A DNA stretch of 64,000 nt, from the NCBI RefSeq assembly GCF_013315695.1, contig NZ_CP054353.1; one strand, 5' to 3'. Below, one piece after another: positions 5,977-28,862 of the stretch (its first letter is position 1; each line of letters begins with the position of its first letter). A program made the position numbers and the translations under genes. The notes under the pieces are model-generated. The model made no database searches. It saw only the letters and a program-made list of their open reading frames with translations, and was not told where the DNA came from. The DNA comes from Escherichia coli (GTDB taxonomy: Bacteria; Pseudomonadota; Gammaproteobacteria; Enterobacterales; Enterobacteriaceae).

Positions 5977-6513
5977 ATGGCCAGCAGAGGCGTAAACAAG
6001 GTTATTCTCGTTGGTAATCTGGGTCAGGACCCGGAAGTACGCTACATGCCAAATGGTGGCGCAGTTGCCAACATTACGCTGGCTACTTCCGAATCCTGGC
6101 GTGACAAAGCGACCGGCGAGATGAAAGAGCAGACTGAATGGCACCGCGTTGTGCTGTTCGGCAAACTGGCAGAAGTAGCCAGCGAATATCTGCGTAAAGG
6201 TTCTCAGGTTTATATCGAAGGTCAGCTGCGTACCCGCAAATGGACCGATCAATCCGGTCAGGATCGCTACACCACAGAAGTCGTGGTGAACGTTGGCGGC
6301 ACCATGCAGATGCTGGGTGGTCGTCAGGGTGGTGGCGCTCCGGCAGGTGGCAATATCGGTGGTGGTCAGCCGCAGGGTGGTTGGGGTCAGCCTCAGCAGC
6401 CGCAGGGTGGCAATCAGTTCAGCGGCGGCGCGCAGTCTCGCCCGCAGCAGTCCGCTCCGGCAGCGCCGTCTAACGAGCCGCCGATGGACTTTGATGACGA
6501 TATTCCGTTCTAG
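5977..6513 (+). CDS. ssb: Single-stranded DNA-binding protein (178 aa)
   Basis: [32 protein letters not shown]... OB-fold N-terminus, Gly/Gln/Pro-rich linker, acidic tip DFDDDIPF. Confidence 0.97.
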
Positions 6514-6551
6514 AGTTAACTTGTGAGTTATTTGTAAAGAATCCATACGCA

Positions 6552-6580
6552 GGCCCCTGTTAATTCAGGGGTTTTTTGTT
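6552..6580 (+). terminator. Intrinsic terminator of ssb
   Basis: Hairpin caggcccctg-ttaattc-aggggttttttg. Confidence 0.7.
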
Positions 6581-6650
6581 TCTATCGTCGGAAAAAGTGT
6601 CTTGTATAAATTGGTGATTTTTCACATAAAGTGTACCTTGTAATTGTGTA

Positions 6651-7919
6651 ATGTTTATGGGGTGTGAGTGCATGGAAAAGAACTACAGAGTTACAACATT
6701 TGTCATGGATAGTGGCGAGCGCTATTGCATGGTAGTGGATCGTGCTTCTGGGCTTCCCATGTATTACCCCACTCTGTTTCTAACAACTCAAATCCGCAAT
6801 AGAGAGGATGCTTTTTCAACGATGTTGGCGGCGGCTAACAACCTGGTTATGTTGTTACGCTTTGTAGAGAGTCGCGACATTGACCTTGAGCAGCGGTTTT
6901 TGACCAAAGACTTCTTCAAGCCACATGAGCTGGATGATCTGCGAGATTTTGCTCAGTGCAAACAAAGAAAGGGGCCATTAACTGTGTCCTCTACCTCTTG
7001 GTTGGCCGATGCGATGACCGATATCGTTGATAACGGGACACAGCATTCCCGGCTAACAACGTTTGCCAACTATTTACACTGGTATGCGATGCATATCTTA
7101 AAGACGACAGAACTGGAAGTTGTCGAAAAGATCAATGCTATGGCGGCGCAGATAAAGACGCGCCGACCATCTAAAAAGCGCAGAAACCACGACTTACAAG
7201 ACAGGTCATTGAGTGATGTTCAATTGGACGCGCTATTTGAAGTCATCCAGCCTAGATCAGAGTTAAACCCTTTCTCAATAGATGTGCAGCGCCGCAATCG
7301 GCTGATGATCTTACTTCTGTTTTATCTTGGCATCCGAGGTGGTGAATTATTAAATATAAGAATACAGGACATAGATTTTAGCGCTAACAGGATCCGTATC
7401 GTTAGGAGAGCAGATGAACAAGCTGACTCTAGAACCAATGAGCCTAATGCTAAAACTAGAGAACGGCTCTTACCGTTGGCTGAATCCTTAGCTCAAGAAC
7501 TGCATAGTTATATCCTTCAAGATCGCCGGAAAGTCAGAAATGCGAAGAAAAATGACTATCTGTTTGTAACTTACAAGAGTGGACCAACTCTGGGAAATCC
7601 TATCTCCAAAGGGGGATATCATAAAATTTTTTCCGTAGTCAGGTCTATATCACCGCAATTGTATGCAGCGACAGGACATTCGCTCCGCCACACTTGGAAT
7701 CGCAAGTTTTCAGAAAGAATGGATGCCATGAATGAGCAAGTCAGCGAGGAACGCCAAGAGCAACTTCGTTCGTACTTAATGGGCTGGAGAGATGGCTCGG
7801 GAACCGCAGCGACTTACAACAAGCGTTTCATTCGGCAAAAAGGTTTTGAGGCCGCCTTGGCATTACAAGCAGGTAACGGCACTAGCTTGCCAGAGGACTT
7901 CAAGGATGACCATGAATAA
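6651..7919 (+). CDS. Tyrosine recombinase 1 of trio (integrase family, 422 aa; start may be the internal Met at 6672)
   Basis: Catalytic signature seen in translation: ...GIRGGELLNI... (Arg), HSLRHTW (His-x-x-Arg), LMGWRDGSGTAATYNKRF (Tyr nucleophile). Confidence 0.8.
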   Translation: MFMGCECMEKNYRVTTFVMDSGERYCMVVDRASGLPMYYPTLFLTTQIRNREDAFSTMLAAANNLVMLLRFVESRDIDLEQRFLTKDFFKPHELDDLRDFAQCKQRKGPLTVSSTSWLADAMTDIVDNGTQHSRLTTFANYLHWYAMHILKTTELEVVEKINAMAAQIKTRRPSKKRRNHDLQDRSLSDVQLDALFEVIQPRSELNPFSIDVQRRNRLMILLLFYLGIRGGELLNIRIQDIDFSANRIRIVRRADEQADSRTNEPNAKTRERLLPLAESLAQELHSYILQDRRKVRNAKKNDYLFVTYKSGPTLGNPISKGGYHKIFSVVRSISPQLYAATGHSLRHTWNRKFSERMDAMNEQVSEERQEQLRSYLMGWRDGSGTAATYNKRFIRQKGFEAALALQAGNGTSLPEDFKDDHE

Positions 7920-9444
7920 CCTCTTACTTGGGTTAGTACCAGAACGAATCCGTGCCAGGGCCAATGGCTACTCTTTTCTGTTGTATGACACATCGTGGAC
8001 ATTGGATAGAAATATCACTATTAATCTTGCTGATATTCACCATTACTTGTCAGATGGGACGCTAGATGGCTGCCTGCGTACACTGGCGTTTTATGCATCC
8101 AATCGTTCTTCTTCTCATACAAAAAATATTCTTGAACGGTTTCAGCACATGCTGCGTGAGACTGACGCGAGAGAAATTACTGATACGGTATTGATTAATT
8201 ATCGGTCGATGCTGTCGCCTGCAACAGAATGGTATCTAGCAACCATCCGTGGCTTTCTTCGATCCTGGCACGAACTGGGCTATCCCGGCATCAGTAAGGA
8301 GGTGAACCGCTTGCTAGATGGCTGGACGCTAAAGGGTAATCGTAAGGGGGATGCGGTTAAGCGCATGGATCCTCAAGAGGGGCCACTGACGGATAATGAG
8401 CTGACAGCGTTTAACGAGGGGGCTGTTCGGGCTTATGAAAAGAGCTTAATTACTATAGCTGAGTTGGCTATAGCACTTGGCACCAGTCATACAGGACGTC
8501 GTCCCATTCAGATCTCGCTGCTTCGTGTGGTCGATGTCCTTTGTGGTAAAAATGGAAAGGGAGAGCCCTTCTATGTGTTGAATGTGCCGCGAGCCAAGCA
8601 GCGCAGCAGCTCTTTCCGAATAAACTTCAAACCATTTGCAATATCACTGGAACTATGGGCAATCCTGAGTGCTCAGGCAAGAAATGCGATTGCGCAGGTT
8701 GAAAATCGTTTGGGGTTTGAATTGCAGGAAGATGACCGGCAGCAAATCCCTCTTTTTCCTGATCTTGATGTGTTAGATGCCGTCCAATCTCCTTATGAAT
8801 TCCGCCAACTGCATGCTACCGACAAACTCCACATTCCCGCCGCAGAGATAACCGACACCCTCCAATACATCGTAGAAAAGTCCGACATCCGGTCGGAACG
8901 TACCGGTGAGCTATTACATATCAATGCTCGTCGTTTTCGTTATACCACAGGCACACGAGCTGCCCGGGAAGGCTTTGGCGAGCTGGTGATTGCGGAACTG
9001 CTTGACCACGCGGACACCCAAAACGCAGGCGTTTACATCAAGAATATCCCCGAGCATGTGAAAAAGCTTGATGAGGCGGTTGGCTTCCAATTAGCACCAT
9101 ACGCTCAGGCCTTTGTCGGGGCACTTGTCGATTCAGAGAGAGACGCGCATCGAGGTAACGACCCTACCAGTCGTATTCGGACCGAAATGGGTCAGGGTGT
9201 TGGTACTTGTGGAGAACATGGCTTTTGTGGTGCCAATGTTCCTATTCCTTGCTACACCTGCATGCATTTCCAGCCTTGGCTGGACGGCCCACATGAAGAT
9301 GTCTATCAAGGACTGCTCAACGAACGTGAACGGGTGAAAGAGATAACTGGCGACATCCAGATTGCTGCCGTACTTGATCGCAGTATTATCGCGCTGGCAG
9401 ATGTGATCATGCGTTGTGCAAAACGTCGTGAAGAGCTTAGTTAA
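7906..9444 (+). CDS. Tyrosine recombinase 2 of trio (about 513 aa)
   Basis: C-terminal region with RRFRYTTGTRAAREG and LLDHADTQNAGVYI (R/H...Y pattern); ATG at 7906 or 7912 overlaps the upstream stop at 7917-7919. The ORF-track start at 7792 is rejected as an overlap artefact. Confidence 0.75.
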   Translation: MTMNNLLLGLVPERIRARANGYSFLLYDTSWTLDRNITINLADIHHYLSDGTLDGCLRTLAFYASNRSSSHTKNILERFQHMLRETDAREITDTVLINYRSMLSPATEWYLATIRGFLRSWHELGYPGISKEVNRLLDGWTLKGNRKGDAVKRMDPQEGPLTDNELTAFNEGAVRAYEKSLITIAELAIALGTSHTGRRPIQISLLRVVDVLCGKNGKGEPFYVLNVPRAKQRSSSFRINFKPFAISLELWAILSAQARNAIAQVENRLGFELQEDDRQQIPLFPDLDVLDAVQSPYEFRQLHATDKLHIPAAEITDTLQYIVEKSDIRSERTGELLHINARRFRYTTGTRAAREGFGELVIAELLDHADTQNAGVYIKNIPEHVKKLDEAVGFQLAPYAQAFVGALVDSERDAHRGNDPTSRIRTEMGQGVGTCGEHGFCGANVPIPCYTCMHFQPWLDGPHEDVYQGLLNERERVKEITGDIQIAAVLDRSIIALADVIMRCAKRREELS

Positions 9445-9460
9445 CAGGGAGCAATAACCA

Positions 9461-11494
9461 ATGGCTGAGATTTTCCTGTTTAAGCCAAAGGCTACGCTGA
9501 CAGCAGCAGAAAACCTTGAAGCATTCATATCCCAGTGCCGAGATCAATTGACTGTATTCGGCTCTGATCTCACTTGGGAAGATCCTGTTTGGCCAAACAT
9601 AACTGTATTTGCCAAGTTGGGCATTATTACGAGAAAACCCATACTGGAAGAGACGCAAGACCCTGCTTTCATTGATTTTGCCAAAGCCTATTTCCGTTAC
9701 CAGCAGGGGCATAGCCTCTCTAGGGCAAAGAATGAAAGTAAAGCCCTCCGTGCGGTTGAGGCGGCTTTGCTTCAAGTAAATGGAAACGCAAATATTGATG
9801 GCCTGTCGATTTCTGTGCTGGATGAAGCAGCTGAATTGGCAAAGCATTACTACTCCGATGGCTCCGCATATCATTGTGGCCGTGAGATTGAGCGGCTGGC
9901 TAAGTTTGTAGCTGAAAACCAGCTTGTATCAAGTGCTGTACAAAATTGGGTCAATCCAATTAAACGTGCAGAGGATAAGAACAAAACGAGCAGAAAGGCG
10001 AAGAAAAATAGGGAAGATAAACTTCCGAGTGATATTGCTCTTAATGCGTTGGCGGAAATTTTTGCCAACGACCCAATTCATGAGCGAGACATATTTACAA
10101 CATCGGTTTTTGCCATGTTGATGTCGGCACCTTCACGTATTACTGAGGTGTTAGCACTGCCTGTGGATTGCGAGGTTTTTGAAACGGATCGTGAAGGGAT
10201 AGAACGATATGGTTGGCGTTTTTTTGCGGGGAAAGGCTATGAGGGTGATATCAAATGGATACCCACCGTGATGGTCGGTATAGCTAAGACAGCCGTAGCT
10301 AGAGCTAGAGTGCTCTCTGAAAATGCACGACAACTGGCCAAGTGGATCGAGAAACACCCGAATAAGTTTTACCGCCATGCTAACTGTCCCAGTGTAGCCG
10401 ATGATGAGCCATTGACGATGAAGCAGGTTTGTATGGCGCTCGGTTTTGCACATTACTCTAAAAAGACGTGCAGGTCGTGTCTTGGTAATCGAGGTTTAGC
10501 TAAAGAGGATGGTGTACATACTCTAAATAGCCTGTGGCAGCACACAATGGCGCGTTTACCGGATGGCTTTCCGTGGTTTGATAAAGACAAGGGAATTAGG
10601 TACAGCAATGCCTTGTTTGTACTGAACGTAAATCAGTTCCACGGGAACAGAGGATGCATACCAGTTGAGTTACATAAGCCAACCAATAATTTCTTCAACA
10701 GTGATCTGACGCCTCGTCTGTCCTTGAAAGGAAAACATGCCAGTATCTTTGATCGCCATGGTTACCATGCTGTAAACGGAGAGCCGGTGAAATTAACCTC
10801 ACATCAGGCTCGACACCTGCTCAACACCATTATCCAGCGCGGTGGCCTGTCAAACTTGGAAATTGCCAAGTGGTCGGGGCGGGCAGATGTGAAACAGAAT
10901 CGAACTTACAACCACATGACTGAATACGAACTGGTTGGCATTGCTGAACGCCTTGATCCCACAACAGCGCTATTTGGGCCTGCTGGCGAGGTGGCAAAGC
11001 ATCTGCCCGTGACTATGCAGGAGTTCAATACCTTAGAGCATGCCGCAGTCCATGTGACGGAGTATGGCTACTGTGTGCATGATTACACCATGAGTCCTTG
11101 TGAGAAATTCCGAGATTGCGTCAATTGTACCGAACAGGTTTGCATCAAAGGCGATGATGCTGAAAAGTTGGATCGCATTAAGATACGTCTGGAGAAATTA
11201 GAGCGACTGTTTTTTCTTGCTGACGCAGCAGTGGAAAGTGGTGAGATAGGAACTGATCGCTGGTATCAGTACCACAAGAAAACTGTTACCCGGCTTCGTG
11301 AACTAGTGGCTATTTTAGAGAATCCAGACATTGAAAATGGTGTCCAGATTAAGCTCCGGGGCAATGATTTCAGCCAGCTTCGCCGTGTTGTCGCAAAGAC
11401 GTCTATTGTGGCCATCGAGCAAAAAGGCAAAGAAAGTGAAGAAGCTGTGATGTTAGATGATTTGACAACTTTGTTAGGAGGTGGCCTTGGCTAA
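9461..11494 (+). CDS. Tyrosine recombinase 3 of trio (677 aa)
   Basis: LTSHQARHLLNT (H-x-x-R-H) and WSGRADVKQNRTYNHM (Tyr) motifs; RBS-like cagggag 8 nt upstream of ATG. Confidence 0.75.
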   Translation: MAEIFLFKPKATLTAAENLEAFISQCRDQLTVFGSDLTWEDPVWPNITVFAKLGIITRKPILEETQDPAFIDFAKAYFRYQQGHSLSRAKNESKALRAVEAALLQVNGNANIDGLSISVLDEAAELAKHYYSDGSAYHCGREIERLAKFVAENQLVSSAVQNWVNPIKRAEDKNKTSRKAKKNREDKLPSDIALNALAEIFANDPIHERDIFTTSVFAMLMSAPSRITEVLALPVDCEVFETDREGIERYGWRFFAGKGYEGDIKWIPTVMVGIAKTAVARARVLSENARQLAKWIEKHPNKFYRHANCPSVADDEPLTMKQVCMALGFAHYSKKTCRSCLGNRGLAKEDGVHTLNSLWQHTMARLPDGFPWFDKDKGIRYSNALFVLNVNQFHGNRGCIPVELHKPTNNFFNSDLTPRLSLKGKHASIFDRHGYHAVNGEPVKLTSHQARHLLNTIIQRGGLSNLEIAKWSGRADVKQNRTYNHMTEYELVGIAERLDPTTALFGPAGEVAKHLPVTMQEFNTLEHAAVHVTEYGYCVHDYTMSPCEKFRDCVNCTEQVCIKGDDAEKLDRIKIRLEKLERLFFLADAAVESGEIGTDRWYQYHKKTVTRLRELVAILENPDIENGVQIKLRGNDFSQLRRVVAKTSIVAIEQKGKESEEAVMLDDLTTLLGGGLG

Positions 11495-11906
11495 GCATCT
11501 GGACAATAGAGACATTAACGCCATCGTAAATCTAATTCGAGGATGGAAGGAACCAAAACTGTCCTGGTCAGCAATTTGTGAGGCGGCAGAACCATTGGTC
11601 GGAAAGTTGCCGTCAAGACAGTCCCTTAATGCACATGAGGCAATAGTGACTGCCTATCAAACAAAGAAAGAGGCGCTTAAAGGCCGTGGCCCCAAAAATC
11701 CGCGTCCAGCTAGTTTGAACATTGCAGCCGCGAGGATTGTGAATCTTGAAAGCGAAATCGAAGAGCTTAAGGAAGAGAACCGGAGGTACAAACAACAGTT
11801 TGTGATCTGGCAATACAATGCATACAAATATGGAATGACAGAACATCAACTTAATGCGCAGCTGACAAAGATTGACCGTGAGCGCTCTGATGGAGAAAGA
11901 AGATAG
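11481..11906 (+). CDS. Small protein (about 140 aa) coupled to recombinase 3; possible ginD-like accessory factor
   Basis: ORF overlaps the 3' end of recombinase 3 (GTG 11481 or TTG 11487 just after aggagg); C-terminal half has coiled-coil character (LESEIEELKEENRRYKQQ). Function not recognisable. Confidence 0.5.
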   Translation: MALAKHLDNRDINAIVNLIRGWKEPKLSWSAICEAAEPLVGKLPSRQSLNAHEAIVTAYQTKKEALKGRGPKNPRPASLNIAAARIVNLESEIEELKEENRRYKQQFVIWQYNAYKYGMTEHQLNAQLTKIDRERSDGERR

Positions 11907-11981
11907 TTGCTGAGTACGATATCGAGGGTACATTTCTCTGTGTAGGGGTAGTTATTTACAAAAAAATAGGAGAATAATTAA

Positions 11982-14900
11982 ATGGTCAAACCAAACTGGG
12001 ATAACTTTAAAGCTAAATTTAGTGAGAATCCTCAAGGTAATTTTGAGTGGTTTTGCTACTTGTTGTTCTGTCAAGAATTCAAAATGCCCGCAGGTATATT
12101 TAGATATAAGAATCAATCTGGTATCGAAACTAATCCAATAACCAAAGATAATGAAATTATCGGTTGGCAATCTAAATTCTATGACACAAAATTGTCGGAT
12201 AACAAAGCTGATCTTATAGAAATGATTGAGAAAAGCAAAAAGGCTTATCCAGGATTAAGTAAAATCATTTTCTATACTAATCAAGAGTGGGGGCAGGGGA
12301 GAAAGTCCCATGAACCTGAAGGCGATAAGAACGCTGATAATTATTTGGAAACTGTCGGAAATAGTAACGATCCCAAAATAAAAATTGAAGTTGATCAGAA
12401 AGCATATGAGTCGGGTATCGAAATAGTATGGAGAGTTGCTAGTTTTTTTGAATCACCGTTTGTAATAGTTGAGAATGAAAAGATTGCTAAACATTTCTTC
12501 TCCCTTAATGAAAGCATCTTTGATTTATTAGAAGAAAAGCGCAAGCACACAGAAAATGTTTTATATGAAATTCAAACCAATATAGAGTTCAAAGACAGAA
12601 GTATTGAAATTGACAGACGACATTGTATAGAACTTCTACATGAGAATCTAGTTCAGAAAAAAATTGTCATCGTCAGCGGAGAAGGTGGGGTTGGAAAAAC
12701 AGCAGTTATCAAAAAAATTTATGAAGCAGAAAAACAATACACTCCTTTCTATGTCTTTAAGGCTAGCGAGTTTAAAAAGGACAGTATTAATGAGCTATTC
12801 GGTGCGCATGGCTTAGACGATTTCTCTAATGCTCATCAAGACGAATTACGTAAAGTCATAGTCGTAGATTCTGCTGAAAAGCTTTTAGAACTGACCAATA
12901 TCGATCCTTTTAAAGAATTCCTGACTGTTTTAATAAAGGATAAATGGCAGGTTGTTTTCACAACCCGTAACAACTACTTGGCAGATCTGAACTATGCTTT
13001 CATAGATATTTATAATATAACTCCTGGAAACTTAGTAATAAAGAACCTTGAACGCGGCGAGCTAATAGAGTTATCTGATAACAATGGATTTAGCCTTCCT
13101 CAAGATGTTCGATTATTAGAACTAATCAAAAATCCATTTTATCTAAGTGAATATTTGAGGTTCTATACCGGTGAAAGCATCGATTATGTGAGCTTCAAAG
13201 AAAAGCTTTGGAATAAGATTATTGTCAAAAATAAACCTTCTCGGGAGCAGTGTTTCTTAGCGACTGCTTTTCAGCGGGCTAGTGAGGGCCAATTTTTTGT
13301 CTCCCCGGCATGTGATACTGGAATTTTAGATGAGTTAGTTAAAGACGGAATTGTCGGCTATGAAGCTGCTGGTTACTTCATTACACATGATATATACGAG
13401 GAATGGGCATTAGAAAAGAAAATTTCTGTCGATTATATCCGTAAAGCGAACAATAACGAGTTCTTCGAAAAAATAGGAGAATCACTTCCTGTTCGCCGTA
13501 GTTTTCGGAATTGGATATCTGAACGATTGCTTTTAGATGACCAGTCCATAAAGCCTTTTATCGCAGAAATAGTCTGTGGAGAAGGAATATCAAATTTTTG
13601 GAAAGACGAGTTATGGGTAGCTGTCCTTCTTTCCGATAATTCAAGCATATTTTTTAATTACTTTAAAAGATATTTACTTAGTAGTGACCAGAATCTATTA
13701 AAAAGACTTACTTTCTTATTGAGGCTTGCTTGCAAGGACGTTGATTACGATCTGCTTAAACAGTTAGGTGTAAGTAATTCAGATCTGCTTTCCATTAAAT
13801 ATGTTCTTACTAAGCCTAAGGGAACTGGTTGGCAGAGTGTGATCCAATTTATCTATGAAAATTTAGATGAAATAGGGATCAGAAATATTAATTTTATACT
13901 TCCTGTGATTCAGGAGTGGAATCAAAGAAACAAAGTGGGTGAAACGACTCGATTATCTAGTTTGATAGCCCTAAAATATTATCAATGGACTGTAGATGAG
14001 GATGTCTATTTATCCGGAAGGGATAATGAGAAAAATATTCTGCATACGATTCTTCATGGGGCGGCCATGATTAAACCTGAAATGGAAGAGGTTTTAGTTA
14101 AGGTTCTTAAAAATAGGTGGAACGAGCACGGTACCCCATATTTCGACCTTATGACCTTAATCCTTACTGACTTAGATTCATATCCGGTTTGGGCATCTCT
14201 CCCGGAATATGTTCTACAATTGGCAGATCTGTTCTGGTATCGGCCACTTAAAGAAACAGGCGAACGTTATCACAGTATGGATATTGAAGATGAGTTCGGT
14301 CTATTTAGGTCTCATCACGACTATTATCCAGAAAGTCCATATCAGACTCCTATATATTGGTTACTACAATCACAGTTCAAAAAAACAATAGACTTTATTC
14401 TTGATTTTACGAACAAGACAACGATATGTTTTGCCCACTCCCATTTTGCTAAAAACGAAATTGAAGAAGTCGATGTCTTTATTGAAGAAGGAAAGTTTAT
14501 AAAGCAATATATATGCAATCGTCTGTGGTGCTCATATCGAGGAACACAGGTCTCTACCTACTTACTTTCATCAATTCATATGGCATTGGAAAAATTTTTT
14601 CTTGAGAATTTTAAAAATGCAGACTCGAAAGTGTTGGAAAGTTGGCTTCTTTTCTTGTTAAGAAATACCAAGTCAGCTTCTATTTCTGCAGTAGTTACGA
14701 GTATTGTACTTGCATTCCCTGAGAAGACATTCAATGTAGCTAAAGTACTATTCCAAACAAAGGATTTCTTCCGTTTTGATATGAATCGAATGGTTCTAGA
14801 CAGAACACATAAAAGTTCATTAATCTCCCTCAGGGATGGCTTTGGCGGTACAGATTACAGAAACTCTTTGCACGAAGAAGATAGAATTAAAGCTTGCGAT

Positions 14901-16745
14901 GATGTGCATAGAAATACTTATCTTGAAAATCTTGCCTTGCATTATCAAATTTTCAGGAGTGAAAATGTAACGGAGAAAGATGTCATTGAAAGGCAACAAG
15001 TGCTCTGGGGTATTTTCGATAAATACTATAATCAGCTTCCAGATGAAGCTCAAGAAACTGAAGCCGATAAGACGTGGAGGCTCTGCTTGGCAAGAATGGA
15101 TCGGCGAAAGATGAAAATAACTACCAAGGAGAAAGATGAAGGGATTGAGATATCATTCAATCCTGAGATTGACCCTAAACTAAAGCAATATAGTGAGGAA
15201 GCAATAAAGAAAAACTCCGAGCATATGAAGTATGTAACGCTGAAACTATGGGCAAGCTATAAAAGAGAAAAGGATGAACGTTATAAGAATTATGGAATGT
15301 ATGAGGACAATCCGCAAATTGCTTTACAAGAGACCAAAGAAATAATAAAAAAGCTTAATGAGGAAGGGGGTGAAGATTTCAGACTATTAAATGGTAATAT
15401 ACCAGCAGACGTTTGTTCTGTATTACTGTTAGATTACTTTAATCAGTTGAATAATGAAGAGAGAGAATATTGTAAAGATATTGTTCTAGCATATTCTCAA
15501 CTTCCGTTGAAGGAAGGCTATAATTATCAGGTACAAGATGGGACAACCTCGGCAATTTCAGCCTTACCCGTGATTTATCATAATTATCCAATGGAAAGGG
15601 AGACTATAAAAACAATATTACTTTTGACACTGTTTAATGACCACTCTATTGGAATGGCAGGTGGGCGCTACTCAGTATTTCCTAGTATGGTGATTCATAA
15701 ATTATGGCTAGACTATTTTGATGATATGCAGTCTCTATTGTTTGGTTTTTTGATTTTAAAGCCAAAGTATGTAATTCTTTCAAGAAAAATCATTCATGAA
15801 AGTTATCGTCAAGTAGACTATGACATTAAAAAAATAAATATTAATAAGGTGTTTTTAAATAACTATAAGCATTGCATATCAAATGTCATCGATAATAAAA
15901 TATCTATAGATGATTTGGGAAGTATAGATATAGTTGATCTACATATTTTGAACACAGCTTTCCAATTAATTCCAGTTGATACTGTTAATATTGAACATAA
16001 GCAATTGGTTTCCTTAATTGTTAAAAGATTTTCTACAAGCCTATTGTCAAGTGTTCGAGAAGATAGAGTTGATTACGCTCTTCGGCAGTCTTTCTTGGAA
16101 AGATTTGCCTACTTTACGCTTCATGCGCCCGTGAGCGATATTCCCGATTATATAAAACCTTTTCTTGATGGTTTCAACGGTTCAGAGCCTATTTCAGAGT
16201 TATTTAAAAAATTTATTCTCGTCGAAGATAGATTAAATACTTACGCCAAATTTTGGAAGGTTTGGGATTTGTTTTTTGATAAAGTGGTTACTTTGTGCAA
16301 GGATGGAGATAGGTATTGGTATGTAGATAAAATTATAAAAAGTTACCTTTTTGCTGAATCTCCATGGAAAGAAAACTCTAATGGTTGGCACACATTTAAA
16401 GATAGCAATAGTCAATTCTTTTGCGATGTATCTAGGACTATGGGCCATTGCCCTTCAACTTTATATTCTCTTGCCAAATCTTTGAATAACATTGCCAGTT
16501 GCTATCTTAATCAAGGTATAACCTGGCTTTCAGAAATGTTGTCGGTTAATAAAAAGCTATGGGAAAAGAAATTGGAAAATGATACTGTTTATTTTTTAGA
16601 ATGTTTGGTTAGGCGGTATATTAACACTGAGCGTGAGCGAATTAGACGAACCAAACAGTTGAAAGAAGAGGTCTTAGTAATATTGGATTTTTTGGTAGAG
16701 AAAGGATCTGTTGTTGGTTATATGTCACGGGAAAATATTCTGTGA
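11982..16745 (+). CDS. Large STAND-type P-loop NTPase (1587 aa): N-terminal unknown domain (about 1-220), NTPase core (about 225-330), about 1250-aa helical C-terminal region; candidate anti-phage (Avs-like) protein
   Basis: Strong RBS (aggag, 9-nt spacer). Walker A GEGGVGKT (aa 233-240), Walker B VIVVDSAE (aa 292-299), TTR motif in QVVFTTRN (aa 323-330) typical of STAND NTPases. Very AT-rich codon usage; no transmembrane or secretion signals noticed. Confidence 0.8.
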   Translation: MVKPNWDNFKAKFSENPQGNFEWFCYLLFCQEFKMPAGIFRYKNQSGIETNPITKDNEIIGWQSKFYDTKLSDNKADLIEMIEKSKKAYPGLSKIIFYTNQEWGQGRKSHEPEGDKNADNYLETVGNSNDPKIKIEVDQKAYESGIEIVWRVASFFESPFVIVENEKIAKHFFSLNESIFDLLEEKRKHTENVLYEIQTNIEFKDRSIEIDRRHCIELLHENLVQKKIVIVSGEGGVGKTAVIKKIYEAEKQYTPFYVFKASEFKKDSINELFGAHGLDDFSNAHQDELRKVIVVDSAEKLLELTNIDPFKEFLTVLIKDKWQVVFTTRNNYLADLNYAFIDIYNITPGNLVIKNLERGELIELSDNNGFSLPQDVRLLELIKNPFYLSEYLRFYTGESIDYVSFKEKLWNKIIVKNKPSREQCFLATAFQRASEGQFFVSPACDTGILDELVKDGIVGYEAAGYFITHDIYEEWALEKKISVDYIRKANNNEFFEKIGESLPVRRSFRNWISERLLLDDQSIKPFIAEIVCGEGISNFWKDELWVAVLLSDNSSIFFNYFKRYLLSSDQNLLKRLTFLLRLACKDVDYDLLKQLGVSNSDLLSIKYVLTKPKGTGWQSVIQFIYENLDEIGIRNINFILPVIQEWNQRNKVGETTRLSSLIALKYYQWTVDEDVYLSGRDNEKNILHTILHGAAMIKPEMEEVLVKVLKNRWNEHGTPYFDLMTLILTDLDSYPVWASLPEYVLQLADLFWYRPLKETGERYHSMDIEDEFGLFRSHHDYYPESPYQTPIYWLLQSQFKKTIDFILDFTNKTTICFAHSHFAKNEIEEVDVFIEEGKFIKQYICNRLWCSYRGTQVSTYLLSSIHMALEKFFLENFKNADSKVLESWLLFLLRNTKSASISAVVTSIVLAFPEKTFNVAKVLFQTKDFFRFDMNRMVLDRTHKSSLISLRDGFGGTDYRNSLHEEDRIKACDDVHRNTYLENLALHYQIFRSENVTEKDVIERQQVLWGIFDKYYNQLPDEAQETEADKTWRLCLARMDRRKMKITTKEKDEGIEISFNPEIDPKLKQYSEEAIKKNSEHMKYVTLKLWASYKREKDERYKNYGMYEDNPQIALQETKEIIKKLNEEGGEDFRLLNGNIPADVCSVLLLDYFNQLNNEEREYCKDIVLAYSQLPLKEGYNYQVQDGTTSAISALPVIYHNYPMERETIKTILLLTLFNDHSIGMAGGRYSVFPSMVIHKLWLDYFDDMQSLLFGFLILKPKYVILSRKIIHESYRQVDYDIKKININKVFLNNYKHCISNVIDNKISIDDLGSIDIVDLHILNTAFQLIPVDTVNIEHKQLVSLIVKRFSTSLLSSVREDRVDYALRQSFLERFAYFTLHAPVSDIPDYIKPFLDGFNGSEPISELFKKFILVEDRLNTYAKFWKVWDLFFDKVVTLCKDGDRYWYVDKIIKSYLFAESPWKENSNGWHTFKDSNSQFFCDVSRTMGHCPSTLYSLAKSLNNIASCYLNQGITWLSEMLSVNKKLWEKKLENDTVYFLECLVRRYINTERERIRRTKQLKEEVLVILDFLVEKGSVVGYMSRENIL

Positions 16746-16790
16746 TGTAGTTGAAAATAATAATTTTAATGAGAGCTTTTCCAATTTAGG

Positions 16791-16815
16791 CTCCAGGGAT
16801 TGGAGCCTTTTTATT
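16791..16815 (+). terminator. Intrinsic terminator after the large NTPase gene
   Basis: Hairpin ggctccaggg-a-ttggagcc followed by tttttatt. Confidence 0.6.
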
Positions 16816-16840
16816 ATCGAAAAGATTAATATCTTATAAG

Positions 16841-17059
16841 TCAATCAGTAAAACGCAGCAAAGCTCGTTGCTCTTGAATGTTCACTCCGTGATAAATTCT
16901 TTGATTACCACATAAATAACAAGAACAAGCACAAGGGGTGCAGTAAATTTTCCCTACAACTTTTTCAGTTTTAGCCAACGCAATTCGATATGTTTTTCTC
17001 TTAGATTTTAACCGAGATATATGATGACGACGCCATGCCCGATTTCTAACCATTTCCAT
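16841..17059 (-). CDS. Small basic Cys-rich hypothetical protein (72 aa)
   Basis: ORF with GGAG-type RBS; Arg/Lys-rich N-terminus and a CTPCACSCYLCG cysteine cluster (possible zinc ribbon). No family recognised. Confidence 0.3.
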   Translation of the reverse strand: MEMVRNRAWRRHHISRLKSKRKTYRIALAKTEKVVGKIYCTPCACSCYLCGNQRIYHGVNIQEQRALLRFTD

Positions 17060-17283
17060 TCACTCCAATTTTCTACCGCGGTGTTATACCGCGCCCGTAT
17101 CAATCTTTGGAGTTCGATATCGATCTGACCTTTCATGAATACCTCGGAATTTATCAATAAAGTGAGTGCTATATCATAGCTTATGGGATGAAAGTTTGAT
17201 ATTTAGCACTTTTCAGCTTTAGGTAAAGCTGTCCTCAATAAAGCTAATTTCTTGTTTATTAATGGAATTTCTATGTGGAAGTG

Positions 17284-18105
17284 TTAGAAATCCTGTTTTA
17301 CTTTATCCATCGTTAAAACTTTACTTATTATATAAGGATCATAATTTCTTATACTCATAAGGCAATTTATCAAATTGGAAACGTGGCTATCATCAGGTAT
17401 AAGTATATATTTAATATCATCGAAAGAAAAACCAATGCCAAATTCAGAGAATTTTTTACTTAAGACGGCCTTCTGGTTAGGTTCCACCACTCGCTCTAAA
17501 TTTAGGCTAGGCCATAAATCGCCAACAAACGGATGCGGTACATATCTCCATTCTTTTTCGTCAGCGTAGATATAATTCTCAATGGTTTTTTCGTTCGTCC
17601 TTTCTAATTTCCCTTTATAATTTTTCATATAGCGTAATAAATTATAAAGGTCAGCGTACTCTTCTTTAAGGCTTTCAAAATACTTACGCTCTTTATTATC
17701 AAGGATATGCCTTTTCGACCATAGCGGAATTAACGCATCCTTTAGTTTTCTAATTCTTTTATTATACTTTGAAAATAATTCACTGCCTTGATTCATGTAT
17801 AGAACGGGATGGAGATCATTTTTCTCAGCCCATTCTTTTGTTAACCCAAATCCAAATTCACCATATTTTCCACTATGATCTTTAATCTGAGAAAGCTTGA
17901 TGTCACAGAATGAAACCATTGGTACTGCGAAATTTCTTCTTCCTTTTACTCCGACTATGCGTTCACGGGCAAGAAATGGTTTAAAATAGAGTTCTGTTAA
18001 AATGCTATAGAATGCCTCTTCATTTTTAGTAAAGTGAAACAACGTTGTTGGATGTAAACTATTAACTGCTTGTATAACTGTTTCTTGGTTTTCTATAGCA
18101 CTCAT
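17284..18105 (-). CDS. AbiGi-like abortive-infection family protein (273 aa)
   Basis: N-terminal LFHFTKNEEAFYSILTE... resembles, by recall, the FHFT-type N-terminus of AbiGi-family proteins; AT-rich; convergent with the NTPase gene. Confidence 0.55.
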   Translation of the reverse strand: MSAIENQETVIQAVNSLHPTTLFHFTKNEEAFYSILTELYFKPFLARERIVGVKGRRNFAVPMVSFCDIKLSQIKDHSGKYGEFGFGLTKEWAEKNDLHPVLYMNQGSELFSKYNKRIRKLKDALIPLWSKRHILDNKERKYFESLKEEYADLYNLLRYMKNYKGKLERTNEKTIENYIYADEKEWRYVPHPFVGDLWPSLNLERVVEPNQKAVLSKKFSEFGIGFSFDDIKYILIPDDSHVSNLINCLMSIRNYDPYIISKVLTMDKVKQDF

Positions 18106-18483
18106 ATATTAACTGTTCCATAGTGTAAAACCTGACTTAGCAAAGGTTATCATACTAGTCTTTGTACTGTAAGCACACTTGGTTTAATTCCACGCACTTT
18201 TTGAGATTTCCGGTTTTTTGATCTCTTACCAAAATCTATGCCAGATTGAATCAAAGGTCCGAGCTGGGTCACCAAAAAAAGTAAAATTATGCACTTTGAT
18301 AGATTATATTTTAACTAAATTCTTTACAGTTAAATCATTTCTTATGCCTTAGTTTCTGATAAAAAAGGTTTTTTTTCACGATTTATAAGTATCAGGTTAT
18401 GTGAACCGTTCTGATTTGTCGTTAAAACAATAGGTTATATTGTTTTAAGGTGGATGATTAAAGCATCTGCCAGCCATAAAAAA

Positions 18484-26901: not shown

Positions 26902-28862
<1,961 letters not shown>

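Follow-up and report, generated by a model that had tools for sequence, protein, structure and literature searches.

Within the 64,000-nucleotide stretch of Escherichia coli DNA analysed here (RefSeq assembly GCF_013315695.1, contig NZ_CP054353.1; the whole stretch is referred to as the window), a small open reading frame (ORF) on the minus strand separates a gene for the defence protein Avs4 from an AbiGi-like gene. Comparative sequence analysis establishes that this ORF is a genuine, conserved protein-coding gene, that it is independent of the cargo genes on either side of it, and that it belongs to a broad protein family that includes T5.055 of phage T5 and the phage protein group PHROG 4499. 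The explanation that we favour, and hold with moderate confidence, is that the gene is a stand-alone accessory gene of this family with gated translation, and that it forms a constant landmark of a lineage of GInts (genomic islands with three integrases) targeting ssb.

Several lines of evidence indicate that the ORF encodes a protein under selection. A search of 5.8 billion proteins returned 12 relatives that are 64-99% identical; those that are intact have 68-72 aa and stem from E. coli, Pantoea, Enterobacter and metagenomes. Among eight DNA variants dN/dS is 0.11-0.34 for divergent pairs, and the minimum numbers of substitutions at the first, second and third codon positions are 48, 43 and 77. 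Reading frame and length are kept down to 57% identity, in a homologue from Ewingella. The window protein matches PHROG 4499 over its full length (E=5.7e-16, residues 5-67 against profile positions 6-71 of 88) and T5.055 with 48% identity (BLASTP, E=2e-14), and similarity detectable only in the protein extends to phage genes annotated as coding sequences (CDS). When 1.84 billion cluster representatives were searched with a profile, 553 matched at E<=1e-3, all unnamed, and a second profile search returned 1214 'hypothetical' proteins, all of them lacking a name and a Pfam domain; by tblastn the family is present in 461 phage records, mainly from T5-like phages and Erwinia jumbo phages.

An earlier note on this DNA allowed that the ORF could be spurious, which the dN/dS values, the excess of third-position changes and the size of the protein family contradict. 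On this alternative, what is conserved would be a non-coding DNA or RNA element, such as a recombination landing pad or a small RNA (sRNA), and not a protein. The annotation pipeline PGAP would seem to agree, since RefSeq calls no gene between avs4 and the AbiGi gene in any E. coli record inspected; moreover, the segment behaves as a homology block with variable DNA on its flanks, and its leader resembles a structured RNA. Against these observations stand the substitution pattern, the retention of frame and length across divergent homologues, the protein-only similarity to annotated phage CDS, and the invariance of specific residues at 98-100% over 264 sequences. We find the non-coding reading barely credible, and it is already refuted as far as analysis of this kind allows. 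A separate possibility, that the ORF is a frameshifted remnant fused to the upstream ORF, was rejected, given that the family motif is found in the main frame only and that this frame has a conserved start and Shine-Dalgarno (SD) sequence.

The earlier note described a 72-aa ORF at 16841-17059 with a GGAG-type ribosome-binding site, an Arg/Lys-rich N-terminal half and the cysteine cluster CTPCACSCYLCG, lying co-directionally downstream of the AbiGi-like gene. All of these features are present. The 72 codons run from an ATG at 17059 to a stop at 16841-16843 and translate as MEMVRNRAWRRHHISRLKSKRKTYRIALAKTEKVVGKIYCTPCACSCYLCGNQRIYHGVNIQEQRALLRFTD; GGAG occupies 17063-17066, the N-terminal half is basic as described, the cysteine string is found in the protein, and the AbiGi-like gene (17284-18105) ends 224 nt upstream on the same strand. 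It is the extent of the gene that changes. Because every homologue begins at MVRNRAW, and because the spacing to GGAG is 9 nt from the ATG at 17053 and only 3 nt from that at 17059, the gene is better assigned to 16841-17053, with 70 rather than 72 aa. That a small basic protein with a Cys motif deserved attention at this place is borne out by what follows.

The position of the gene is constant among islands that otherwise share little. The order in the window is ginABCD, a first cargo slot (Avs4), the small gene on the opposite strand, a second cargo slot (AbiGi-like) and the 3′ end. Slot 1 is occupied by Avs4 in the window and in loci L010, L011, L014 and L020, by DRT3 in L015, L018 and L036, by an 802-aa AAA_13 ATPase in L002-L007, by a Y4jQ protein with response regulators in L016, and by SIR2 and HerA in L023 and Ewingella. 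Slot 2 contains AbiGi in the window, L010, L014 and L020, an 824-aa DEAD helicase in L011 and L013, Hachiman in L015 and L018, insertion sequence (IS) elements in L002-L004 and L007, and an AAA_15/21 pair in L023; it is empty in L036, where no other gene lies between the small gene and the 3′ end. Throughout six cargo combinations, and in the Ewingella and Enterobacter islands, the small gene stays convergent to the slot 1 gene that follows ginD. DNA homology between islands is limited to the gin operon and a block that always holds the small gene and runs from ~16774 or 16872 to 17127-17193. Among complete E. coli genomes this block is found at 389 places in 368 genomes and the ginCD segment at 405 places in 380 genomes, as would be expected of a backbone gene that accompanies gin at a fixed place whatever the cargo. 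Since it is retained while the cargo on both sides changes, we conclude that the small gene is linked to the backbone and splits the cargo into two exchangeable slots.

These comparisons bear directly on the proposal in the earlier note that the ORF could be a regulator or third component of a defence module formed with Avs4 and AbiGi. The gene does lie between both defence genes and is co-directional with AbiGi, the AbiGi gene is without its usual AbiGii partner, and the Avs4-ORF-AbiGi block is intact in Pantoea, on a plasmid and in metagenomic contigs. However, the ORF and its leader are kept where Avs4 is replaced by DRT3, SIR2-HerA, AAA_13 or Y4jQ, and where Hachiman, a DEAD helicase, an IS, AAA_15/21 or nothing takes the place of AbiGi, so that the conserved co-occurrence expected of an Avs4 accessory or an AbiG component is missing. 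Looking for the ORF next to homologues of the 273-aa and 1587-aa genes, as had been suggested, reveals that it is kept also without either of them. Homologues in T5-like phages, a prophage and integron cassettes occur on their own, the protein has no match in PADLOC, Pfam or NCBIfam, to AbiGii or otherwise, and a 224-nt spacer with a conserved -10 element separates it from AbiGi. Avs4 is said to have been described by Gao et al. in 2022 as a single-protein system. The comparative data largely refute a third component or dedicated regulator of an Avs4/AbiGi module, which we regard as highly improbable.

Linkage to the backbone raises a different possibility, namely that the gene product assists GInt recombination or regulation, as a directionality factor of the excisionase type or by regulating gin. 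A gene for a small basic DNA-binding protein at the 3′ end would, in the excised circle, be directed towards the attachment site and ginA, and the near one-to-one co-occurrence with ginCD in E. coli, the place of the gene directly before the 3′ end in the minimal island L036, the small size and very basic character of the protein, and its conservation while cargo turns over on either side are all consistent with such a function. Nevertheless, family members occur in strictly virulent phages (T5-like and jumbo) and in integron cassettes, settings that offer no place for such a role, whereas an excisionase would be expected to carry an Xis/AlpA-type domain and to be confined to integrative elements; Pfam and NCBIfam give no Xis, AlpA or HTH (winged-helix) match. 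In Pseudomonas, a minimal GInt consisting of ginABCD plus ends suffices for integration and excision, and the available portion of that report mentions no conserved gene at the 3′ end (PMC5385486). Because relatives stand alone elsewhere and the minimal Pseudomonas element works, a role in GInt recombination is disfavoured and seems to us quite unlikely. The stand-alone accessory gene favoured here would instead act in phage-host or element-host conflict.

The gene can also be lost or damaged. In a disrupted copy on plasmid NZ_CP180634.1 (L037, 8001-8419) slot 2 is missing altogether, as is the 5′ portion of the gene, and PGAP calls a chimeric 61-aa 'hypothetical protein' in its place; a frameshifted 56-aa variant (P0012) is found on 8 contigs. 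Given these truncated and frameshifted copies, the gene would be dispensable in the short term at least, a point that counts against the interpretation offered here.

Outside GInts the family occupies a variety of settings. In T5-like phages its member is T5.055, in the tRNA region (L026, T5 27263-27574). The Erwinia jumbo phage Ea35-70 and many phage contigs carry relatives, a Salmonella lambdoid prophage has one in its nin-type accessory region, and in Pantoea one lies in an ordinary chromosomal neighbourhood. An identical 72-aa member is found at three positions and in three contexts in chromosomal integron arrays of Vibrio parahaemolyticus (L027-L029), among HNH/SRA, SIR2-like and acetyltransferase cassettes. 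A scan of genome contigs with strict patterns returned only 2 loci, as did a scan of metagenomes with a DNA pattern. Members of PHROG 4499 are single-gene units of 60-100 aa with the common motif RRHH...RLK.KR..Y...TP.CSCxxCGN.R...G.T.QE.R. The window copy differs in residing in a chromosomal or plasmid GInt rather than a phage, in having CSCYLCGN where CSCWMCGN is commoner in the family, and in two extra, non-conserved Cys. When neighbouring ORFs in 80 viral loci were clustered, no partner gene was shared across clades and only synteny within the T5 group emerged; literature searches for 'T5.055' and 'CSCWMCG' returned no papers. Taken with the fixed place of the gene in GInts, this distribution suggests a family exchanged among virulent phages, accessory regions of prophages, integron cassettes and GInts; the small gene of the window would travel with its GInt lineage as a backbone-linked accessory that serves no particular cargo. 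Separately, tRNA clusters hold or adjoin the family gene in T5-like phages and in four other, unrelated viral contigs, L070, L089, L093 and L098 (4 of the 35 non-T5 loci checked); in L093 a tRNA-His begins at the last base of the family gene, and in L098 three tRNAs end ~80 nt upstream of it.

The short palindrome CCGCGGTGTTATACCGCGC, which the earlier note placed at 17093-17111 above the start, is real and unique in the window, although it lies 17 nt away from there, at 17076-17094, with arms at 17077-17082 and 17088-17093. It fits best as the inner hairpin of an mRNA leader predicted to sequester the SD, and not as an operator above the start. In minimum free energy (MFE) folds of all eight GInt variants, ACUCCAA (17113-17107) pairs with UUGGAGU (17068-17062), burying GGAG and enclosing the hairpin at 17093-17077. 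RNAalifold recovered both helices independently from 12 distinct GInt leaders, in which 94% of cells are paired as against 31-51% with the partners slid. Among the same leaders the top pair of the hairpin varies between U-A, U-G and C-G, and U-A replaces C-G at another; all but 5 of 500 shuffles have a lower covariation score. Alignment of the eight variants reveals three further conserved elements upstream of the start: a highly conserved stretch of 80 nt, a GAGG followed by a start codon (ATG, GTG or TTG) at 17136, and a putative extended -10 element that is preserved even where the upstream DNA is unrelated between islands. The small gene would then have its own extended -10 promoter (~17168-17176), with a transcript start at ~17160 and a leader of ~100 nt.

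A similar architecture recurs across the family, as judged from per-sequence folds with gene controls rather than from a formal covariation test. Leaders from the Salmonella prophage, the Vibrio cassette, Ea35-70 and others are unrelated in sequence and yet have the same order of anti-SD, strong inner hairpin, SD and start, with predicted outer stems each complementary to its own SD flank (GAACUCC/GGAGUUC, UUAUCCC/GGGAUAA, GCUUCUUC/GGAGAAGC and UUCUUCAUAU/AUAUGAGGAA). For non-redundant family leaders with a strong SD, the median SD pairing probability is 0.85 compared with 0.67 for 194 control genes, likewise with strong SDs, from the same loci (p=0.003), it exceeds 0.9 in half of the family leaders and 14% of the controls, and the nested architecture is predicted in 14 of 26 family leaders and 37 of 230 controls (Fisher p=5e-5), in each case among family members and controls that are not phylogenetically independent. 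Rfam gives nothing in 16600-17400 and only tRNAs in six viral loci. A covariance model built from GInt leaders matched only leaders of the GInt type, and in a MAFFT alignment of leaders from different clades the SD arms were misaligned and RNAalifold returned no consensus.

The anti-SD falls inside a candidate upstream ORF (uORF) that overlaps the main start in another frame. In 10 distinct leaders, those of Vibrio and a Rhodocyclales genome among them, a start codon precedes the main start by 82-87 nt, and the anti-SD always falls at about codons 8-10. A gene caller predicts the uORF in three related contigs, and its SD is present in GInt and Vibrio versions, the Vibrio one being a short uORF of 10 codons with a strong GGAGG. 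Rare Arg and Ile codons number 35 in the uORF frame and 12 and 13 in the other two; just after the anti-SD the window uORF reads AGA .. AUA CGG .. CGG, and prophage versions have AGG CGG. In every GInt variant the SD is thus predicted to pair with a segment inside an upstream ORF, the arrangement on which leader attenuation depends. The same kind of pairing is found in ermC/cat-type attenuation, mok-hok coupling and the masked SDs of T4 late genes, in which an inner hairpin likewise stabilises the closed form; in the window the upstream segment lies inside a short uORF, with rare codons just downstream of the anti-SD. What distinguishes the window leader from the ermC/cat and mok-hok systems is that no inducer, stalling peptide or antisense RNA is known for it, that it has no Rfam family and that translation of its uORF is putative.

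We infer a promoter for the gene and a uORF-dependent opening of the leader, as well as metal binding, a target and a biological role for the protein. By default GGAG would be paired with the anti-SD (17107-17113), in a stem enclosing the hairpin at 17077-17093, and translation would be blocked. It is plausible that a ribosome translating the uORF, or one paused at the rare Arg and Ile codons after the anti-SD, covers the anti-SD and frees the SD. Several observations weigh against this account. The fold of the window leader has a z score of -2.1, modest by itself, and within GInts only 2 pairs of the structure have double changes. About half of the non-redundant family leaders have no sequestered SD. 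The promoter and transcript ends are deduced, and the -10 of the window, TATAGC, is without the final T. Substitutions in the uORF by codon position (20/14/18) show no third-position excess, which also lends no support to reading it as a second protein gene, the uORF has only 20 codons in L016, and prophage versions are without an SD.

A gated leader with an overlapping uORF is also what might be expected of a toxin or addiction module, in which a harmful small protein is silenced as in mok/hok, and which would stabilise the island or kill infected cells. The predicted tight translational gating conserved across the family, the overlap of the uORF with the main start, and the occurrence of members in Vibrio integron arrays rich in toxin-antitoxin systems and among the abortive-infection genes of GInts agree with this idea. 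Yet the protein is highly basic and soluble-looking, without the hydrophobic segment of a membrane peptide, and virulent phages carry the family gene. No antitoxin gene, antisense RNA or conserved partner was found. Of the two hallmarks of type I toxin-antitoxin systems, a hydrophobic toxin and an antisense RNA, neither is apparent: Rfam reports no sRNA on either strand, and no antisense promoter was seen in a search that was not exhaustive. A toxin of this kind strikes us as improbable.

Alternatively, the gene and its ~90-nt leader might constitute a self-contained mobile 'sensor-effector' cassette, in which the leader is an undescribed cis-regulatory RNA, expression reports on the tRNA pool or the state of translation, and the protein acts on the translation or RNA machinery. 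A ribosome slowed at AGA, AUA and CGG/AGG after the anti-SD would switch on the CxCxxC protein, with phage infection, tRNA cleavage by anticodon nucleases or the supply of phage-encoded tRNAs as possible triggers. The idea fits because the family gene lies repeatedly inside phage tRNA clusters, in T5-like phages and four other lineages, and this placement, together with the rare-codon leader, suggests a link to translation. If correct, it would account for the retention of the gene in settings as different as phages, integron cassettes and a defence-carrying GInt. We advance it as speculation with a small but appreciable chance of being right.

The protein combines a predicted Arg/Lys-rich N-terminal helix with an invariant C-S-C-x-x-C-G-N loop. 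Among 264 family members C43, S44, C45 and C48 are conserved at 98-100%, R14 and R52 at 98%, E61 at 95% and R8/R9 at 94%, with R19, P40, K16 and G49 also in the invariant class; H10 and H11 are conserved at 86% and 84%. The family-invariant set R8, R9, R14, R19, P40, C43, S44, C45, C48, R52 and E61 (91-100% conserved) is complete in the window protein, which has five Cys, C38 being non-conserved and C41 present in 41% of members. An AlphaFold2 model from 149 diverse sequences (pLDDT 84) has four helices, at 5-19, 30-38, 51-55 and 59-67, and is least confident in the Cys loop at 39-50. The model has no structural neighbour, a sequence profile search of the PDB returned only noise (E>=0.4), and metal or nucleic-acid binding gains no support from any fold match, which counts against the functional reading. 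We infer a metal-binding CxCxxC loop on a basic helical scaffold, which could bind nucleic acid or a conserved host or phage machine.

The resemblance to a zinc ribbon seen in the earlier note does not hold. A ribbon would need four ligands and a beta fold, whereas invariance is limited to the C43-x-C45-x-x-C48 triad, a second knuckle is lacking, the model is helical, and neither profiles nor structures give a match. Mu Com, P2 Ogr / P4 Delta and the small CPxCG zinc-finger proteins have two CxxC pairs (C4). The window family resembles them in being ~60-70 aa long and basic, in its Cys cluster with a CxxCG knuckle and in being carried by phages and mobile elements. It differs in that only CxCxxC is invariant, with H10, H11 and C41 as candidates for a fourth ligand, and in its helical model, with no sequence or fold match to those proteins.

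The island that hosts the gene is, by annotation, synteny and the published definition, an E. coli GInt inserted beside ssb. It is flanked by uvrA-ssb on one side and yjcB-pdeC-soxSR on the other, in a region 100% identical to many E. coli chromosomes, from numerous human and animal isolates, and its right end lies at ~18381-18416. A plasmid copy (NZ_CP122931.1, L014/L025) sits just after the plasmid's own ssb and comprises the whole unit from ginA to AbiGi, with homology stopping at window position 18412; the limits of this homology therefore define an element of ~6600-18400 to which the small gene is internal. At window 5977-6651 the GInt lies directly downstream of the chromosomal ssb, and in F-like plasmids directly downstream of the ssb in the leading region; this GInt lineage seems to target the 3′ flank of ssb genes. 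Direct repeats sought as att sites at both junctions were only trivial 8-mers. In published accounts GInts consist of ginABCD, cargo and a short AT-rich 3′ end (PMC5385486), and a defence-carrying GInt is placed at E. coli hotspot #39 (Hochhauser et al. 2023, PMC10121019). Like the GInt / Tn6571-family islands (Bardaji et al. 2017), the island in the window has three integrase-like genes and a small fourth gene at the 5′ end, its cargo begins directly after ginD, it is inserted site-specifically, and it brings defence genes, which in such islands include AVAST and Hachiman. The parts of those papers at hand describe no conserved gene between the cargo and the 3′ end, whereas the lineage in the window has one. 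In the ssb-targeting enterobacterial lineage the small gene thus constitutes a fifth near-constant landmark.

An important consequence of these findings is that an unannotated conserved gene is added to ~7% of complete E. coli genomes (368/5426), one that surveys of defence islands have missed because PGAP does not call it. As a constant GInt landmark it helps to delimit the cargo and to mine two independently exchangeable defence slots. Recognition of the family connects a gene of a chromosomal island with T5.055 and hundreds of orphans in phages, prophages and integron cassettes, so that a result on any one member would inform all. The recurrent, predicted SD-sequestering leader, absent from Rfam, is a candidate for a new element of translational control. 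A false lead is also removed, since Avs4 and the orphan AbiGi-like gene can be explained without the small ORF. The features discussed are collected in Table 1.

Table 1. Features of the ssb-associated GInt in the window, with positions and supporting observations.
Feature	Position	Strand	Remarks
ginABCD operon: two tyrosine recombinases, 677-aa GinC-like, 141-aa GinD-like	6651..11906	+	immediately downstream of ssb
Cargo slot 1, Avs4, 1587 aa	11982..16745	+	NCBIfam NF041815, 2066 bits; PADLOC, 2361 bits
GC-rich hairpin between the convergent Avs4 and small genes	16788..16808		canonical Avs4 terminator; T-run on + strand only
Small CDS, 70 aa (MVRNRAW...RFTD)	16841..17053 (stop 16841-16843)	-	T5.055 / PHROG 4499 family; basic; invariant CxCxxC triad
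Candidate leader ORF, 42 codons	17008..17136 (ATG 17136, stop 17008-17010)	-	own SD GAGG 17142-17145; overlaps main start in other frame
Shine-Dalgarno arm UUGGAGU, 3′ arm of outer helix	17062..17068	-	predicted fold; GGAG 17063-17066
Inner leader hairpin CGCGGU-AUAAC-ACCGCG	17077..17093	-	predicted fold; palindrome of the earlier note
Anti-SD ACUCCAA, 5′ arm of outer helix	17107..17113	-	predicted fold; upstream ORF codons 8-10
Putative extended -10, TGaTATAGC (TGnTATAAT in homologues)	17168..17176	-	alignment
Cargo slot 2, AbiGi-like, 273 aa	17284..18105	-	PADLOC AbiGi, E=1.6e-44; PHROG 13416, E=3e-98

The spacer between the cargo genes had been described as containing a hairpin; one does exist between the Avs4 and small genes, but its T-run serves the Avs4 strand only. 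On the other side of the small gene, the AbiGi-to-ORF spacer contains at 17165-17231 a perfect 8-bp hairpin (17214-17231) and a 10-nt inverted repeat of 90% identity (17165-17174 / 17201-17210) that overlaps the putative -10 element, both in a part common only to the AbiGi-type islands closest to the window. The AbiGi-like gene itself fills a slot that other islands give to Hachiman, a DEAD helicase or nothing, and the whole island holds no AbiGii partner for it; the gene may act alone, as a system different from the AbiG of lactococci.

The GinC-like and GinD-like proteins (677 and 141 aa; window 9461-11906) have no Pfam or NCBIfam match and are labelled 'hypothetical protein' in most RefSeq records, though they define the element. 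In Pantoea, L010 retains Avs4, the small gene and AbiGi and has lost ginA-D except for a 75-aa stub. Beyond the AbiGi-like gene, a 52-nt block at 18166-18217 is 90% identical to DNA beside IS3-family transposase genes in the Enterobacter loci L002, L003 and L005, where its orientation relative to the small gene is inverted. Homology with L020 stops at 18218, the site of an IS in that locus, and the block is probably the remnant of an IS end.

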